A stretch of DNA of 64,000 nt from a virus. The notes under the pieces are model-generated. The model ran no database searches and was not told where the DNA came from. It worked only from the letters and a program-made list of their open reading frames with translations. The stretch is from the IMG/VR virus record IMGVR_UViG_3300036398_001591, positions 1-64,000 of that record, one strand, 5' to 3'. Shown here in pieces: positions 8,552 to 21,731 of this stretch (positions are counted from its first letter, which is position 1; every line of letters starts with the position of its first letter). Both the position numbers and the translations under genes were made by a program.

Positions 8552-9536
8552 TTGCTATGGTGGTATCGGTAAGGTAACTGAAGAAAAAGGTAATGCTGAG
8601 ATAGTTAGACAGAAATCAAAGTTAGGAGCCAAGATAAATTCTGGCATTGAATCGAATGATATTGTTCAAACTGTCAATGGTGTTGTTGGCATAACCTTTG
8701 AAGATGACACAAAGGTTCGGGTAACAGAACATTCAAAATTGGTTATTGACGATTTTGTTTATGACCCCAAATCTAAAGGTGCCGGAAAATTAGCAATGAA
8801 AGTTGCTCTCGGCACTGTTCGTTATGCCTCCGGTAGTATAGCAAAAGATAACGTTAAGAACGTAGCAATCAATACTCCGACCGCAACAATTGCGGTTCGT
8901 GGAACGGCATTCACTATGACGGTGGATGAAATTGGACAATCATTGATTGTATTATTACCAAACGTTGATGGTTCAGTTGGTGAAATTGAAGTTCGTACAT
9001 CAATGGGTTCAGTTGTATTAAATCAGGCATTTCAGGCCACGGTAACAACAGGTGCTGAAATCAAACCATTGAAACCGACACTACTCAATTTAAGTGAATC
9101 TGCAATCGATAATATGTTGATTGTTAAACCACCAAAAGAAATACTTAAACAGATGATTGAGGAAAACTCAAAAACATTTGATGCTCTTGCATTTAACGAA
9201 CTTGATAGAAATGCACTTGACATTAAAGTGTTTGTTGATGCATTAAAATATGATGAACTAAACATCAATGAACTAGATACAAATTATCTCACAAATGCAT
9301 TAGACACTCTTACAATGAATGCCTTTCAGGTGGGTTATAATGCATTAACACAATTATATGTCTTTGACCGAAATAGTTATTGGCAACTCAATCGTCATAT
9401 ACGTCAAGATTTTACCATGCTGATAAATAAAGATCAGGGCTATGATATCACTCTAATCCAAGACGGTACTACATTGTTTATTAAAAATATGGATAATACA
9501 ACAAACAAAACAATTATCAAACAAGGTTTAAAATGA
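8508..9536 (+). CDS. Exported FecR-domain protein
   Basis: Signal peptide; ITFEDDTKVRVTEHSKLVID and INTPTATIAVRGTAF FecR signatures. Confidence 0.88.
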   Translation: MLQVLALLLLLFSINCYGGIGKVTEEKGNAEIVRQKSKLGAKINSGIESNDIVQTVNGVVGITFEDDTKVRVTEHSKLVIDDFVYDPKSKGAGKLAMKVALGTVRYASGSIAKDNVKNVAINTPTATIAVRGTAFTMTVDEIGQSLIVLLPNVDGSVGEIEVRTSMGSVVLNQAFQATVTTGAEIKPLKPTLLNLSESAIDNMLIVKPPKEILKQMIEENSKTFDALAFNELDRNALDIKVFVDALKYDELNINELDTNYLTNALDTLTMNAFQVGYNALTQLYVFDRNSYWQLNRHIRQDFTMLINKDQGYDITLIQDGTTLFIKNMDNTTNKTIIKQGLK

Positions 9537-17457: not shown

Positions 17458-17943
17458 TTAAGCAACCATTTCTTGTTCTGCAAGAATCCGCTTTAGACGG
17501 TCTGCACAAAAAGAAGCGGCTGGTGCATCTGGTTTAACCATTGGTGTCATGTTACATGTACCTTTGATATAACCAATTGCTTGTTGAACAACACAAGAAG
17601 AACCATGTTCATCAGACTTGTTAAGGTCCAGGTGAACTTCAACATGCCGATCTTCCAACACATCTTGCAATTCTTGAAACAGTTCGGATACTTTGTAAAC
17701 TTCTGTCATCAAACGCATTGCAGGTTTGGATTTTTTGTGGTCATAATCCAATTCACGATCAACAAATCCGAAGATTTTACAACCGTGGCGACCATCGATA
17801 TGAACCACGACAGCCAAAGCGTAATCTGCATACCAAACGCCGTTAACACGCATACGTTCGGAATCCGCACCAAGGTAAACACGTGTGTCTGAACCTTGAG
17901 CCATAATAAAATCTTTTACTTTTTGGATATCAAAATTTTTCAT
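17458..17943 (-). CDS. RNase H-like YkuK (DUF458) family protein
   Basis: VYLGADS, RLMTEV, EVHLDLN, VKPDAPAASFCAD. Confidence 0.8.
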   Translation of the reverse strand: MKNFDIQKVKDFIMAQGSDTRVYLGADSERMRVNGVWYADYALAVVVHIDGRHGCKIFGFVDRELDYDHKKSKPAMRLMTEVYKVSELFQELQDVLEDRHVEVHLDLNKSDEHGSSCVVQQAIGYIKGTCNMTPMVKPDAPAASFCADRLKRILAEQEMVA

Positions 17944-17957
17944 ATCATTTCCTTTAA

Positions 17958-18031
17958 TGGCATCCCGCGAGAGATTCGAACTCCCACCAAGGGTTTTGGA
18001 GACCCGTATGCTGCCGTTACACTAGCGAGAT
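17958..18031 (-). tRNA. tRNA-Trp (CCA)
   Basis: Loop CT-CCA-AA, G73, CCA. Confidence 0.92.
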
Positions 18032-18243
18032 ATATTTTTTATTGCTTGAGTTTCATCATTATATCTTGTTGTTTTATCCACTTCTGAATTTTTCAACTTG
18101 ACACTTTCAAATGCTTCATCCTCAATTTTTTGATCTTCTTCTTCTTTCAAATCACGACAAAAGATTGCATCCCAACGTTTTGAGTATTCGTCATTTGCAA
18201 TGCTGAATGGTCGTGGGCTTGAACCTTTTCCACCATCACTCAT
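18022..18243 (-). CDS. Hypothetical protein (GGKGSSPRP family)
   Basis: 73 aa ORF with AGGAG RBS. Confidence 0.6.
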   Translation of the reverse strand: MSDGGKGSSPRPFSIANDEYSKRWDAIFCRDLKEEEDQKIEDEAFESVKLKNSEVDKTTRYNDETQAIKNISR

Positions 18244-18263
18244 ATCTAACTCCTATAAAAAAA

Positions 18264-18338
18264 TGGCCGGTCCTGAGAGAATCAAACTCCCACTTCAAGG
18301 TTCGTAGCCTTGTGTAATATTCATTTTACTAAGGACCG
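18264..18338 (-). tRNA. tRNA-Arg (ACG)
   Basis: Loop CT-ACG-AA, CCA. Confidence 0.88.
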
Positions 18339-18341
18339 AAT

Positions 18342-18416
18342 TGGTGGTGCTAGAAGGTACCGAGCCTTCCTCATCGGCTTATGAAACCGTTACGCATCCG
18401 TCTACGTCATAGCACC
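18342..18416 (-). tRNA. tRNA-Met (CAT), atypical T loop
   Basis: Loop TT-CAT-AA, T loop CTCGGTA, CCA. Confidence 0.75.
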
Positions 18417-18422
18417 GAAATA

Positions 18423-18497
18423 TGGTGGAAGTACGGGGAATCGAACCCCGAACTGTAACTTGCAAGGCTACTGCGTTCCCAATTACGCCATACCCCC
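18423..18497 (-). tRNA. tRNA-Ala (TGC)
   Basis: G3-U70, loop CT-TGC-AA, CCA. Confidence 0.93.
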
Positions 18498-18502
18498 ATA
18501 TA

Positions 18503-18567
18503 CAACAGAGTAGTTTTTTGCGGTTTCAATTACAAGTTGAATGCTTTTATTTGCTGAACCTACTCTA
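18503..18567 (-). ncRNA. Y-RNA-like element 4 (anticodon stem-loop-like insert)
   Basis: AGAGUAG-GUUCAGCA...CUACUCU-GUUG, ends identical to element 2; insert UUCAA-CUUGUAA-UUGAA. Confidence 0.65.
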
Positions 18568-18571
18568 AAAC

Positions 18572-18647
18572 TGGCTCCGGTCTCAGGATTCGAACCTGAC
18601 TTCAAGGATTAACAGTCCTCCGCCCACACCTAGTTTGCTTCACCGGA
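18572..18647 (-). tRNA. tRNA-Asn (GTT)
   Basis: Loop CT-GTT-AA, G73, CCA. Confidence 0.88.
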
Positions 18648-18654
18648 ATAAAAA

Positions 18655-18722
18655 TAACAGGATGATTTTTGTCGCTAGACAACCAAAAAGTTTAGCTAAT
18701 TTTATTTGCTGTACTCATCCTA
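18655..18722 (-). ncRNA. Y-RNA-like element 5
   Basis: AGGAUGA-GUACAGCA...UCAUCCU-GUUA. Confidence 0.62.
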
Positions 18723-18727
18723 AAAAC

Positions 18728-18801
18728 TGGTCTCGATGGCAAGAATCGAACTTGCGCTACATGGTCCCAAACCACGGGTGATGCCATTTCACTACACCGA
18801 G
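18728..18801 (-). tRNA. tRNA-Pro (TGG)
   Basis: Loop TT-TGG-GA, CCA. Confidence 0.92.
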
Positions 18802-18806
18802 AAAAC

Positions 18807-18872
18807 TGGAGCAGTCACTACGATTCCCACGTAGATAATGGGTGGACCCCATCACGGTTAATATCCGACTGC
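18807..18872 (-). ncRNA. Degenerate D-armless tRNA-like RNA with a Gly-type acceptor
   Basis: GCAGUCG/UGACUGC-UCCA acceptor, hairpin around UCC, T-position hairpin CUACG-UGGGAAU-CGUAG; 66 nt. Confidence 0.6.
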
Positions 18873-18879
18873 ATAAAAC

Positions 18880-18953
18880 TGGAGCGGAGTGAGAGAATCG
18901 AACTCTCAACAACAGATTGGAAATCTGTAGTTTTACCATTAAACTAACCCCGC
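18880..18953 (-). tRNA. tRNA-Gly (TCC)
   Basis: Loop TT-TCC-AA, U73, CCA. Confidence 0.93.
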
Positions 18954-18961
18954 AAAAAACT

Positions 18962-19035
18962 TGGTGCCCCATGACAGAATCGAACTGCCGTAACCTGATT
19001 ACAAAACAGGTGTAATACCATTATACTAATAGGGC
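18962..19035 (-). tRNA. tRNA-Thr (TGT)
   Basis: Loop TT-TGT-AA, CCA. Confidence 0.9.
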
Positions 19036-19040
19036 GAAAC

Positions 19041-19114
19041 TGGTAGCGGGTGACAGATTCGAACTGCCGATGCACCTGGCTTATGAGACCGGTGTGGTGG
19101 CCACCCTACCCGCA
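19041..19114 (-). tRNA. tRNA-fMet-like (CAT) with minimal D loop
   Basis: 1:72 mismatch, loop CT-CAT-AA, D arm GUGG-CCA-CCAC, CCA. Confidence 0.72.
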
Positions 19115-19150
19115 AATCTTATTATAACATACTCTATATATGTTGGCAAC

Positions 19151-19238
19151 TGGTGGAGCCTGAAGGAATCGAACCATCCGCCAACCACCCTTCAATTAAA
19201 GGCAACGGATTTACAGTCCGCTGAAGGGAACAGGCTCC
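19151..19238 (-). tRNA. tRNA-Tyr (GTA), lacking a canonical D arm
   Basis: GGAGCCU/AGGCUCC-ACCA, GCGGA-CUGUAAA-UCCGU, long variable region, GUUCGAUU. Confidence 0.72.
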
Positions 19239-19244
19239 TAAAAC

Positions 19245-19319
19245 TGGTACCGATGGACAATTTCGAAATGTCGGCCTTTCGCTTATCAAGCGAATGCTCT
19301 TCCTCTGAGCTACATCGGT
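19245..19319 (-). tRNA. tRNA-Ile (GAT)
   Basis: Loop TT-GAT-AA, CCA. Confidence 0.9.
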
Positions 19320-19325
19320 AAAAAC

Positions 19326-19400
19326 TGGCGGTCCTAAGGGGTAACGATCCCCTTCTTTTGGCGTGACAAGCCAACGTGCGTCCATGAACACTTTAGAACC
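19326..19400 (-). tRNA. tRNA-Asp (GTC)
   Basis: Loop TT-GTC-AC, G73, CCA. Confidence 0.88.
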
Positions 19401-19407
19401 TAAAACA

Positions 19408-19483
19408 TGGTGCCCTAGGAGAGACTCGAACTCTCAGAACCTGGTTTCTAAGACCAGTACGTATACCATTCCGTCACCAGGGC
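19408..19483 (-). tRNA. tRNA-Leu (TAG), short variable arm
   Basis: Loop CT-TAG-AA, CCA. Confidence 0.85.
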
Positions 19484-19493
19484 AAAAATCCTT

Positions 19494-19568
19494 TGGTGTG
19501 GGTGGAGAATTTCGAAATCTCGACTCTCTGGTTAAAAGCCAGATACTCTGCCTCTGAGTTACACCCAC
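19494..19568 (-). tRNA. tRNA-Lys (TTT)
   Basis: Loop CT-TTT-AA, CCA. Confidence 0.92.
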
Positions 19569-19572
19569 ATAT

Positions 19573-19627
19573 TACCATATTAAAACATACTGCGTATTTT
19601 CAGCCAGTAGTGTGCTTTAATATGGTA
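19573..19627 (-). repeat. Long-stem hairpin element (copy B), overlapping the tRNA-Glu CCA
   Basis: TACCATATTAAA...TTTAATATGGTA inverted repeat. Confidence 0.55.
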
Positions 19628-19697
19628 CTCCGTACCAGAATCGAACTGGTCTTATCGGGTTGAAAACCCGGTGTCCTAACCGATAGACGAACGGAGT
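19623..19697 (-). tRNA. tRNA-Glu (TTC)
   Basis: Loop TT-TTC-AA, CCA. Confidence 0.92.
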
Positions 19698-19700
19698 AAA

Positions 19701-19725
19701 AATTACACTTAACTTTTTAAAGAAC
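19701..19725 (-). promoter_or_regulatory. boxA-like 25-bp leader repeat (copy 1)
   Basis: Minus strand GTTCTTTAAAAAGTTAAGTGTAATT, identical at 20680..20704. Confidence 0.55.
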
Positions 19726-19754
19726 ATTTGATTGATTTCTCAATTCATGGATGA

Positions 19755-19808
19755 ATTATAGCACAACCAGAATCTTTGTCAACCATGTTGTTGTAATTTA
19801 ACAACAAC
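19755..19808 (-). promoter_or_regulatory. Sigma70-type promoter with TGTTG-N8-CAACA palindrome
   Basis: TTGACA, 16 bp, TATAAT with TGn extension; palindrome at 19789-19806. Confidence 0.75.
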
Positions 19809-19814
19809 TAAATT

Positions 19815-19890
19815 TGGAGTCGGTGACAGGATTCGAACCTGCATGTAACGGATTTGCAATCCGCTCCCTAGCCTTTCGGGTCACACCGAC
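19815..19890 (-). tRNA. tRNA-Cys (GCA)
   Basis: Loop TT-GCA-AA, U73, CCA. Confidence 0.92.
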
Positions 19891-19891
19891 A

Positions 19892-20080
19892 TTAATCTTT
19901 TTTGCGAGATATCCATCCATTGTACAACGGATCTTTCACCTCATCAACACCGAACTTACCAACAACTTCAAAGTCTGTACCTTTGATAGTCACAAACTCA
20001 TTCATATGTTTAGCAAGATTCATTGCTTCGGCGAGTGTAAGAACCTTAAATGATTCTTCTTTTCCTATCACTTTAAACAT
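19892..20080 (-). CDS. Small hypothetical protein
   Basis: ORF fills the gap between two tRNAs; RBS-like AAGGTGAG. Confidence 0.6.
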   Translation of the reverse strand: MFKVIGKEESFKVLTLAEAMNLAKHMNEFVTIKGTDFEVVGKFGVDEVKDPLYNGWISRKKD

Positions 20081-20094
20081 ACTCACCTTTCATT

Positions 20095-20186
20095 TGGTAC
20101 CTCGACTGAGAATCGAACTCAGATGAACCAATTATCTGTTGCTTACGGGATATAAATCCGCCGTTTTACCATTAAACTACCGAGGC
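20095..20186 (-). tRNA. tRNA with TAT anticodon and long variable arm (nominally Ile)
   Basis: GCCUCGG acceptor, D arm, loop TT-TAT-AT, about 22-nt variable region, GUUCGAUU, CCA. Confidence 0.7.
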
Positions 20187-20187
20187 A

Positions 20188-20277
20188 TGGTGGAGAGTCT
20201 GGGAGTCGAACCCAGTGACCTTATCTCTAAAGCCTGCGGTTTAGCAAACCGGTGCATTACCATCCTGCCCACTCTCC
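20188..20277 (-). tRNA. tRNA-Ser (GCT)
   Basis: Loop TT-GCT-AA, long variable arm, CCA. Confidence 0.9.
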
Positions 20278-20417
20278 AATTCTTCAATCCTATTTGCCGC
20301 TTCTTCAAGCAAATCGGCAATTCTATCTGGTGCATTTTCTTGCACAGACTTCCTTGTAGGAATTTGCCTACGAATTTCGGCACGTTTTCTCAAACGAAAA
20401 ACTAAATCTTCATTCAT
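20241..20417 (-). CDS. 58-aa hypothetical protein overlapping tRNA-Ser(GCT)
   Basis: AGGAG RBS; MNEDLVFRLRKRAEIRRQIPTRKSVQENAPDRIADLLEEAANRIEELESGQDGNAPVC. Confidence 0.7.
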   Translation of the reverse strand: MNEDLVFRLRKRAEIRRQIPTRKSVQENAPDRIADLLEEAANRIEELESGQDGNAPVC

Positions 20418-20432
20418 AAGAACTCCTAAAAT

Positions 20433-20524
20433 TGGTGGAAACGGTGAGATTCGAACTCACGGACCCATTTCTGAATCGACAGTTTTCAAGACTGTAGCAA
20501 TAAACCGGACTCTGCCACGTTTCC
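20433..20524 (-). tRNA. tRNA-Ser (TGA)
   Basis: Loop CT-TGA-AA, long variable arm, CCA. Confidence 0.93.
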
Positions 20525-20530
20525 AATTAA

Positions 20531-20605
20531 CCATATAAAAACACATTGTTACACCCAATAGGATAATAATCCTCATACGAGAATCACCAATGTGTTTCTA
20601 TATGG
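20531..20605 (-). repeat. Long-stem hairpin element (copy C), overlapping the tRNA-Gln CCA
   Basis: CCATATAAAAACACATTG...CAATGTGTTTCTATATGG inverted repeat. Confidence 0.55.
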
Positions 20606-20676
20606 CACCCGAAATAAGAATCGAACTTATACTAACAGAGTCAAAGTCTGCTGTGCTACCACTACACCATTCGGGA
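20603..20676 (-). tRNA. tRNA-Gln (TTG)
   Basis: Loop CT-TTG-AC, G73, CCA. Confidence 0.9.
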
Positions 20677-20679
20677 TCA

Positions 20680-20704
20680 AATTACACTTAACTTTTTAAA
20701 GAAC
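20680..20704 (-). promoter_or_regulatory. boxA-like 25-bp leader repeat (copy 2)
   Basis: Identical to 19701..19725. Confidence 0.55.
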
Positions 20705-20711
20705 TGTGTGT

Positions 20712-20764
20712 ATTGTACATGATTCTTAATCTTTGTCAATACATGTTGTTGTAAGATTACAACA
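20712..20764 (-). promoter_or_regulatory. Sigma70-type promoter with TGTTGTAA-GA-TTACAACA palindrome
   Basis: TTGACA (20734-20739), 16 bp, TACAAT (20712-20717); palindrome at 20747-20764. Confidence 0.7.
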
Positions 20765-20772
20765 CTTCCAAA

Positions 20773-20805
20773 CAAAAAACCCTCAGAACTTTCGTTGTGA
20801 GGGTT
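20773..20805 (-). terminator. Intrinsic terminator (candidate attenuator)
   Basis: AACCCUCA-C-AAC-GAAA-GUU-C-UGAGGGUU followed by a U tract. Confidence 0.8.
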
Positions 20806-20831
20806 GTGAAACTTTAGTTTACTTTTATGTA

Positions 20832-20948
20832 TTACTTAATTCCACTAACCCTTCCGTGCGCCCATGACTGATTATCGCTACCAATAAACGGTGTGCGATA
20901 CTCGGCTGTCAAGCAAGATTTCGAGGGGGTTGAAGTTATTTTAATCAT
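20832..20948 (-). CDS. Putative leaderless 38-aa attenuator leader peptide containing all 20 amino acids
   Basis: MIKITSTPSKSCLTAEYRTPFIGSDNQSWAHGRVSGIK; ATG 7 nt after the -10 box; 3' end complementary to the terminator 5' arm. Confidence 0.65.
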   Translation of the reverse strand: MIKITSTPSKSCLTAEYRTPFIGSDNQSWAHGRVSGIK

Positions 20949-20954
20949 AGTGTT

Positions 20955-20983
20955 ATTATATAGGCTTTTTTTATTATTGGCAA
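20955..20983 (-). promoter_or_regulatory. Sigma70-type promoter
   Basis: TTGCCA (20978-20983), 17 bp, TATAAT (20955-20960). Confidence 0.78.
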
Positions 20984-21002
20984 CCATTTTTTTAAAAAAA
21001 TT

Positions 21003-21731
21003 TTAAATATTTTCCCACTTACCATGTTCGATTGGAACCCAATGTGCAGGATCACGGACAATTTCAAATGAAGTTGGTGGCCATGTGATACCATGGCTTG
21101 CAAGATGTGTTTGCATCAGGTATTCGGGATTGTATTTGATACCTCGATTGTACATCTGATCGAAATGATCTACTGCATCCGCATAGATAGACATTGCGAT
21201 TGGTAATCCAATGGCAAATTGGTCATTGAAGTTTGGTTCATAACCATAACGCTGATTGTTAGGTGTATATATTGTACCTGGTGATTCCAATAAACATCTG
21301 TGAGCCAACTGCAAATCAATCGGCTCAGATAAACCAAAATCTGTACGTGAACGAATCACCAAATCATAATCATCAAGTTCTCTACGCCATTTATCACAAT
21401 ATTGGAGACACTTGTATTGTTGCCAAACATTTGTTGGTGTGCTGTTATATGCTTCGTATTCTCTTGGTGCATCTTCGATTGCTGAAGGATCAAGCACCTC
21501 AATGAATTTGATTTTATACCAAGGCGGTAGATGTGCTTGTAGTTTATCTCTGACTTGGCCGGCAGATTTCAAATCACACCAATTCTTGGAGATTTTTGGA
21601 TCCCAACCAAATGGCCTTCGCCAAAGTACAATGTACAAATCGATTGCGGATTTAGTTAGATTTTGGAGTTGTGAATCAAAGTCGACCGAAAATCGTGGAT
21701 TACCGGTTAGAAGAAGTGCTGTTTTCGTCAT
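21003..21731 (-). CDS. Hypothetical protein, glycosyltransferase-like
   Basis: ALLLTGNPR, YDLVIRSRTD, NDQFAIG, PEYLM motifs typical of phage glyco-enzymes. Confidence 0.6.
   Translation of the reverse strand: MTKTALLLTGNPRFSVDFDSQLQNLTKSAIDLYIVLWRRPFGWDPKISKNWCDLKSAGQVRDKLQAHLPPWYKIKFIEVLDPSAIEDAPREYEAYNSTPTNVWQQYKCLQYCDKWRRELDDYDLVIRSRTDFGLSEPIDLQLAHRCLLESPGTIYTPNNQRYGYEPNFNDQFAIGLPIAMSIYADAVDHFDQMYNRGIKYNPEYLMQTHLASHGITWPPTSFEIVRDPAHWVPIEHGKWENI

Follow-up and report, generated by a model that had tools for sequence, protein, structure and literature searches.

The element described here lies in a 64-kb stretch of DNA (the window), which belongs to a viral contig of 82.5 kb in IMG/VR (~49% complete). 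The source is a T4-like lake phage, a myovirus that encodes a T4-type DNA polymerase, major head protein, portal and tail sheath. The leader, terminator, promoters and tRNA array are all on the minus strand, and the features of the locus are as follows.

20955..20983, minus strand: promoter P1, with -35 box TTGCCA (20983-20978), a 17-nt spacer, -10 box TATAAT (20960-20955) and an A/T-rich tract upstream
20832..20948, minus strand: leader ORF MIKITSTPSKSCLTAEYRTPFIGSDNQSWAHGRVSGIK, 38 codons followed by a TAA stop codon (20834-20832)
20873..20900, minus strand: mid-ORF hairpin UAUCGC-ACACCGUUUAUUGGUA-GCGAUA, spanning codons 17-26 and present in minimum-free-energy folds
20839..20852, minus strand: region 2, the antiterminator 5' arm AGGGUUAGUGGAAU, in codons 33-37, ending 4 nt before the stop codon
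20800..20812, minus strand: region 3, the antiterminator 3' arm GUUUCACAACCCU, whose last 6 nt are the start of the terminator 5' arm
20768..20805, minus strand: predicted intrinsic terminator AACCCUCA-C-AAC-GAAA-GUU-C-UGAGGGUU followed by UUUUGUUUGG; hairpin 20805-20778 (-14.9 kcal/mol), U run 20777-20768
20745..20765, minus strand: inverted repeat GUGUUGUAAUCUUACAACAAC, directly upstream of the P2 -35 box and recurring before other array promoters
20712..20739, minus strand: near-consensus promoter P2, TTGACA-16-TACAAT, kept in most relatives at the head of an array
20676-20603, minus strand: tRNA-Gln, the first gene of the array
11595..20676, minus strand: tRNA array of 26 called co-oriented tRNA genes for 19 amino acids, with small ORFs and additional promoters among them
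19151-19238, minus strand: tRNA-like element that has a 7-bp acceptor stem, an anticodon loop with GUA (Tyr), a T loop and ACCA, and that lacks a normal D arm

P1 matches the consensus at 11 of 12 positions. Six bases (AACACT) separate its -10 box from the ATG at 20948-20946, the A of which is the seventh base, as in leaderless mRNAs. The original prediction, made from the sequence of the locus, had specified TTGCCA-17-TATAAT with an ATG 7 nt downstream, and a leader peptide encoded by 38 codons, 32 of them distinct, that contains all 20 amino acids. Promoter, start, codon counts and peptide are all exact, and the minus-strand coordinates match.

A longer, 51-aa ORF beginning at the in-frame ATG at 20987 was considered as the true coding region. 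It was rejected because stop codons occur upstream in relatives, so that the extension is not conserved. Ten database relatives of the 51-aa form (P0001-P0010) are unnamed or labeled 'hypothetical protein', and this form has no match in Pfam. Public gene calls usually stretch the leader upstream to 51-75 aa; the added residues come from the promoter (…LYNNTM…) and even from the end of the region of the upstream gene. These annotated hypothetical proteins thus have a misplaced start.

The original prediction cautioned that a second promoter lies downstream of the terminator, and P2 is indeed present at 20739-20712. Because P2 is between the terminator and tRNA-Gln, the array in the window does not depend on read-through. 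As long as P2 is active, read-through in the window and in most head-of-array relatives can only add to its output. The inverted repeat before P2 might serve as an operator or as a processing hairpin. It belongs to a recurrent promoter cassette, consisting of (G)TGTTGT-N6-8-ACAACA, a TTGACA promoter and then GTTCTTTAAAAA after the -10 box, which is found in the window at 20745-20765 and ~19785-19812 (minus strand) and in most of the related loci examined for it.

An array follows the leader as predicted, but its proposed coverage of all 20 amino acids was not fully recovered: ARAGORN and Rfam call tRNAs for 19, with none for Tyr. The element with the GUA loop (19238-19151), which neither ARAGORN nor the Rfam tRNA model detects, would complete the set. 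Another unusual gene, at 20095-20186 (minus strand), is a 92-nt tRNA called Ile(UAU) by ARAGORN, whose variable region (22 nt) cannot be folded into a class II arm. This insert is kept in relatives such as L081, in which changes in the acceptor stem are compensatory. Protein-coding genes within or at the end of the array encode a CHASE2-adenylate/guanylate cyclase (9533-11593, plus strand), a DUF2828/DUF7788 protein (11880-13364, minus strand) and an RNase H-like (PF04308) protein (17458-17943, minus strand). A GOLLD RNA (RF02032, 201 bits) occurs within the tRNA array of a related phage contig, at 7549-8012 of L119 (minus strand).

Relatives in uncultured phages

Relatives were collected by three routes. 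Homologues of a 242-aa protein encoded upstream (63-95% identity) gave 25 loci, a DNA pattern based on the peptide core gave 47, and another 120 came from a pattern that combines P2 with the pre-tRNA leader GTTCTTTAAAAA and does not rely on the peptide. All loci were then scanned, without reference to the peptide, for terminators and for an open frame that ends 10-45 nt upstream of a terminator and is complementary to its 5' arm. Such an ORF end is present at 135 of 569 terminators, which correspond to 94 distinct units and 83 distinct peptides. For 72 of the 83, a co-oriented tRNA gene is at most 500 nt away, and for 57 this gene is tRNA-Gln, as in the window. A tRNA array follows the leader in every case for which enough sequence is available, and arrays in the long loci cover 19-20 amino acids.

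Altogether, ~80 distinct relatives were gathered from uncultured phages. Related contigs are 160-175 kb in length. Among 50,697 cultured-phage records, no significant match to the peptide was found, nor any relative of the upstream 242-aa protein; at the DNA level, similarity in cultured-phage records is confined to tRNA-Gln. The element is a compact unit of ~215 bp that is widespread among uncultured T4-like phages of lakes. Evidence at the RNA level is lacking in the data surveyed. Only small shares of 20 sequencing runs, 17 of which are on record as RNA, were covered, and their matches are mostly to conserved tRNA parts. The only RNA-library contig that crosses the element is X2, a 217-nt freshwater contig that corresponds to ~20940-20723 and includes the terminator. 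Because X2 could be either read-through RNA or DNA, it is not counted as evidence.

The leader frame is conserved and open in all relatives (~80 variants), and the remaining two frames are interrupted by stop codons. Start signals are conserved in two forms. Leaderless-type starts occur in 28 head-of-array leaders, with the ATG 5-7 nt past the -10 box (TATAAT-6-ATG in 21 of the 28), and another 25 head-of-array leaders have GGAG-type Shine-Dalgarno sites and start with ATG, GTG or TTG. L010-type relatives have a displaced promoter, TTGCCA-17-TACAAT, and have gained a 5' UTR bearing a GGAG Shine-Dalgarno sequence. This conservation leads us to infer that the leader ORF is meant for translation, which itself has not been observed.

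Within the clade of the window, the peptide core EYRTPFIGSDNQSW is invariant and its codons vary synonymously (CCG/CCA/CCC/CCT, AGC/AGT and CAG/CAA), so that all four Pro codons are used. Peptides outside this clade share at most a loose Y-[RH]-T...D-x-x-W pattern with that of the window, or have no likeness to it. A nucleotide motif, UAUC(G/A)CAC(A), read as Y-[RH]-T, together with CAUGG (containing the Trp codon), is retained across otherwise differing peptides in most relatives (20864-20906 in the window).

The mid-ORF hairpin is predicted in most lineages with the same AUCG/CGAU base and unrelated, lineage-specific apical helices. In the L099 group, changes of CGC/GCG to CAC/GUG leave the base paired. 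RNAalifold analysis of MAFFT alignments recovers only the nearly invariant base of this hairpin, and covariation is unproven. The hairpin does not involve region 2. It might pause RNA polymerase or synchronize it with the ribosome, although this is a guess that rests on predicted folds.

In some lineages, P2 is absent (L146, L151, L137 and L179), and in L146, L151, L137, L153, L135 and L179 no promoter is found from the terminator to the first tRNA. The distance from the U run to tRNA-Gln is 43 nt in L146, a tRNA-like gene begins ~12-20 nt past the U run in L151 and L137, and tRNA-Gly is 34-36 nt past it in L153 and L135. L179 has the pre-tRNA leader without a promoter. A different arrangement is seen in the long-leader lineages (L082, L119, L162, L163, L167, L173, L129 and L136), in which a conserved, structured-looking RNA (GGAAACGAGGUCC ... 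AACGGGCGGCC ... GUAGCGUAUUAAAGCA) lies within the 150-400 nt that separate the U run from the first tRNA. Scans of three of these loci (L082, L119 and L162) revealed no Rfam match at the gathering score for this RNA.

The terminator and its competing helix

An A-rich spacer separates the stop codon of the leader ORF from the terminator. The original prediction proposed that the last codons (20852-20839) pair with 20812-20800 and that this pairing overlaps the terminator. The helix is as described, with 13 bp and a single bulged A (RNAduplex, -16.7 kcal/mol), and AACCCU in its 3' arm is the first 6 nt of the terminator 5' arm. Of the 14 hairpins in the window that resemble terminators, no other has a strongly complementary ORF end upstream. 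RNA that ends at the terminator loop, and hence lacks the 3' arm, folds as the antiterminator, whereas the minimum-free-energy fold of the full transcript contains the terminator. A 7-bp part of the helix formed by regions 2 and 3 is compatible with the terminator in the same fold.

The terminator stem is preserved via compensatory variants in all relatives. In each of the first 38 relatives examined (38/38), the ORF end is complementary to the terminator 5' arm and its flank in a lineage-specific manner, with energies of -12 to -21 kcal/mol (each p <= 0.01), and the helix uses 6-8 nt of the terminator 5' arm. Different lineages have their own complementary pairs, for example GGGUCUUGU/ACAAGACCC as compared with GGGUCUUAUGU/ACAUAAGACCC, CUGGGUUUUGUG/CACAAAACCCAG and GGGGUUUUUGAAGA/UUUUCAAAAACCUC. 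For 63 distinct duplexes, cognate partners have a mean energy of -17.5 kcal/mol versus -12.0 kcal/mol for non-cognate partners, and none of 5000 permutations was as low. The geometry is also similar among relatives: relative to the stop codon, the median positions are 3 nt upstream for the end of region 2, 20 nt downstream for the start of region 3 and 27 nt downstream for the start of the terminator stem.

Covariation is evident in a MAFFT alignment of 50 variants that was not fitted to structure. The proposed partners are paired in 82.4% of cells, versus 70.7 +/- 1.0% with shuffled columns and 38-58% with partners slid out of register. Twelve of the 13 antiterminator pairs have changes on both sides, including pairs in the terminator arm (0/500 shuffles), and the terminator-overlapping portion of the helix covaries as well (alignment columns 6-10 with 64-69). 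RNAalifold on MAFFT alignments recovers only the outer five antiterminator pairs. The question of whether homologous leaders keep the pairing can thus be answered in the affirmative, and they do so through compensatory changes.

These observations meet two criteria for an attenuator: an intrinsic terminator located between a leader ORF and the genes presumed to be regulated, and an antiterminator that shares the terminator 5' arm and that could be masked by a ribosome at the end of the ORF. A further criterion, a 1:2 anti-antiterminator or pause hairpin that secures termination without translation, is not met in the 79 units analyzed. A trp-like 1:2 pairing of AACCC (codons 6-8) with the G run was evaluated in these units and rejected: the best pairing of region 2 with upstream parts of the ORF has a mean energy (E12) of -11.1, the same as in shuffled sequences (median p, 0.46). 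In the absence of 1:2 pairing, an untranslated leader should also permit read-through, unlike the trp leader. An Rfam search of 20600-21050 reveals only tRNA above threshold, and no T-box (RF00230) at E <= 10.

Amino acids and anticodons sampled by the leader

A run or cluster of regulatory codons, as is expected of an attenuator, is also missing. The leader in the window has 32 distinct codons among 38, without a codon run; 12 amino acids occur once, and the set of amino acids is instead complete. The chance of finding 20 types in 38 residues, a calculation called for by the original prediction, is 0.003-0.006. None of 185 small ORFs in the window reaches 20 types.

Completeness is retained in relatives. 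Among 57 distinct leaders that are followed by tRNA-Gln (32-58 aa), 36 contain 20 types, 16 contain 19, three contain 18, and one each contains 17 and 16. Control ORF ends, which precede terminators but lack complementarity, have at most 18 types (at least 19 in 0 of 74). Complete leaders of just 31-32 residues exist, for which the null probability is ~0.0005-0.0009, and several peptide clusters that cannot be aligned with the peptide of the window are complete nevertheless. When one P value per sequence cluster is combined, the result is 2.5e-7, or 1.1e-5 if every tRNA-followed cluster is included. The property is specific to the leader frame, which has 19.4 types as compared with 15-16 in the other two frames. 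Residues that occur once are conserved more than those present in multiple copies (odds ratio, 3.05), although the P value for this comparison is inflated because the compared pairs are related. A count of 'compensated losses' (59 of 69, versus 54 expected) is weak and biased by filtering, and is given no weight here.

The codons also match the anticodons of the array. Under strict wobble rules, the leader in the window samples 23 of the 25 distinct anticodons in the window (null, 16.7 +/- 1.8; P = 0.0004), including both isoacceptor families for Ser, Gly, Arg and Ile. No 38-codon segment of long ORFs samples 23 anticodons (0/2879). Leaders of 19 relatives that have long arrays sample 81-95% of the anticodons encoded downstream. 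Codon diversity is therefore kept despite divergence, in that near-complete coverage of both amino acids and anticodons is found in strongly diverged peptides.

Leaders of a second type, with 20-34 codons, are found inside arrays in L153 (7675-7760, minus strand), L135, L173 and L079, each with its own promoter and terminator/antiterminator. Their amino-acid sets are partial and largely match the tRNAs that directly follow, with no promoter between. The L153 leader MLNVNLLPGTNTPAVEGTPQA is 34 nt before tRNAs for Gly, Glu, Leu, Lys, Ala, Val, Thr, Thr, Pro, Gly, Asn, Met and Asp, and 9 of its 10 amino-acid types match the tRNAs behind it.

Not every codon of the leader is positioned to act on the switch. 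Ribosomes occlude ~9-13 nt ahead of the A site, as established by toeprinting and by work on the ribosomal helicase. Given this geometry, a stalled ribosome would leave region 2 free only at codons 1 to ~28-30 of the leader in the window, a sensing zone that contains 17-18 amino-acid types. His31 and Val34 are inside or too near region 2, and Trp29 is at the border. Because His31 and Val34 adjoin or overlap region 2, stalls at these codons should favor termination. The proposal that the loss of almost any tRNA would be sensed therefore requires qualification: the coverage on which it relies is conserved, but only ~17-18 of 20 types can free the antiterminator, and His31 and Val34 cannot. Val is restricted to the tail in 33 of 59 leaders and absent from the sensing zone in 39 of 59; this bias is in part a by-product of the G/U-rich antiterminator arm.

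The zone by itself is richer than expected, with a median of 17-19 types in 26-28 codons, and P <= 0.05 in 32-53 of 59 leaders depending on the boundary. Zone and tail are also complementary. Cognate unions have 19.55 types and are complete in 62% of cases, versus 19.04 types and 37% when tails are permuted (0/20000), and His, found in one of these two parts, is hardly ever present in both. The P values for zone and tail are inflated by phylogenetic non-independence. From this complementarity, selection for completeness seems to act over the whole ORF, which the simple masking model leaves unexplained. The invariance of EYRTPFIGSDNQSW likewise exceeds what a codon sampler needs. That codons within the antiterminator arm seem to be under such selection is a hint that ribosome stalls close to the end of the ORF are read out too, by a mechanism outside the classical model.

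Proposed mechanism and known systems

We consider it probable, though without any experimental evidence, that the element is a ribosome-mediated leader-peptide transcription attenuator that heads a phage tRNA array and gauges general decoding speed. As far as computation reaches, the interpretation given in the original prediction is supported. According to this model, transcription from P1 would yield a leaderless mRNA, on which a ribosome translates the 38-codon ORF. The relative timing of ribosome and polymerase is inferred: a ribosome that keeps pace would occupy the last codons or the stop codon (~nt 97-117) as region 3 emerges. Region 2 would then be masked, the terminator (3:4) would form and a ~175-nt transcript would be released. 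If the ribosome is delayed within the first ~28-30 codons, or is absent, region 2 would pair with region 3, the base of the terminator stem would be lost, and polymerase would continue into tRNA-Gln and the rest of the array. Both termination and regulated read-through are inferences, as are the direction and size of the response, which would presumably raise phage tRNA output on top of the P2 supply.

With approximately one codon for nearly every amino acid and phage isoacceptor, such a switch would report on the supply of any aminoacyl-tRNA rather than of one amino acid. A more specific idea is that the leader serves as a pan-aminoacyl-tRNA gauge for homeostatic, need-based tRNA supply, for example by boosting the array when host anticodon nucleases or tRNA decay slow decoding. 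The physiological trigger is inferred, and we put this idea forward only tentatively and with more doubt than confidence.

Other explanations account for some of these observations. Perhaps the switch senses the availability of ribosomes or translation initiation, such as 70S initiation on leaderless mRNA or shut-off of host translation, and the amino-acid set is secondary. The lack of 1:2 pairing fits this explanation, since an untranslated leader alone should then read through, as do the leaderless starts in half of the relatives and the tail codons (His, Val) that are not classically sensed. However, sensing of ribosomes leaves unexplained the presence of 19-20 types in 52 of 57 leaders, the 81-95% coverage of anticodons and the matching partial sets of sub-array leaders, and Shine-Dalgarno-led lineages share the same architecture. 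We therefore regard it as unlikely.

The locus might also be a conventional small gene, equipped with a promoter and a terminator of its own, whose 38-aa peptide acts in trans (e.g., in tRNA metabolism or host defense), with the complementarity merely shaping a stable 3' end. Divergent lineages weigh against a trans-acting peptide, in that their peptides share little or nothing and yet the switch and the full amino-acid set are kept. In several lineages, moreover, the terminator abuts a tRNA gene without an intervening promoter. The invariant EYRTPFIGSDNQSW core with its synonymous variation in the clade of the window is what would be expected of such a peptide, and P2 gives the unit an autonomous look, but no Pfam family matches. 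Although 7 bp of the 2:3 helix can coexist with the terminator, the terminator-overlapping part covaries, and we judge the explanation to be very unlikely. Finally, the terminated ~175-nt RNA could itself be a regulatory small RNA comparable to the attenuator-derived rnTrpL, with an incidental ORF. The transcript is short and structured, runs from promoter to terminator, and includes a conserved hairpin and 3' UTR; there is a reported precedent for attenuator-derived small RNAs (PMC6614838). A small RNA would explain neither the frame-specific completeness of the amino-acid set nor the conserved start signals, and there is no matching Rfam family, so we assign this explanation only the barest chance.

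Why phages carry tRNA genes is an old question, and to our knowledge almost nothing is known about the regulation of phage tRNA arrays. Current explanations for the genes are codon compensation and escape from tRNA-cleaving defenses (PMC10264068, PMC11555353, PMC11464382). Full-text literature searches revealed no account of tRNA genes controlled by a leader peptide. Of the published cases that we found, the nearest, which is not attenuation, is the trn tRNA operon of Anabaena sp. PCC 7120, which is silent and is induced by translational stress (PMC8421152). Like the phage array, trn is an accessory array, with ~26 tRNA genes; its expression increases when translation is impaired, as is proposed for the phage array. 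Unlike the phage element, it is controlled at its promoter, where direct repeats are bound by the ribbon-helix-helix repressor TrcR (PMC10272220). No leader ORF or RNA switch has been described for trn, and the text of PMC8421152 does not contain 'attenuat', 'leader' or 'terminator'.

The proposed phage switch and T-box riboswitches both report tRNA charging through a choice between terminator and antiterminator. A T-box lacks an ORF and binds a single uncharged tRNA directly, whereas the phage element has an ORF and no T-box match in Rfam.

The closest mechanistic parallels are enterobacterial leader-peptide attenuators, such as the classical trpL, hisL, leuL and pheL, and the multivalent thrL and ilvL (ilvGMEDA), which respond to more than one amino acid. 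Leader-peptide attenuators have been modeled previously (PMC1183508). The thr, ilv, trp and his attenuators share with the phage element a short leader ORF (the translation of which is inferred in the phage), an intrinsic terminator, an antiterminator that shares the terminator 5' arm, and a decision that depends on ribosome position (likewise inferred in the phage). The phage-borne element differs in that it would control tRNA genes instead of biosynthetic enzymes. It has no run of regulatory codons, as each amino acid occurs approximately once and all 20 are present. It also lacks a 1:2 anti-antiterminator, many of its members are leaderless, and in the window a second promoter is located past the terminator. 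Extra tRNAs are probably made when ribosomes decode slowly, although no experiment has yet addressed this. If so, the element would be a general sensor of decoding speed that makes phage tRNA expression demand-driven, and attenuation of the trp and his type would extend from amino-acid synthesis to the supply of tRNA itself.
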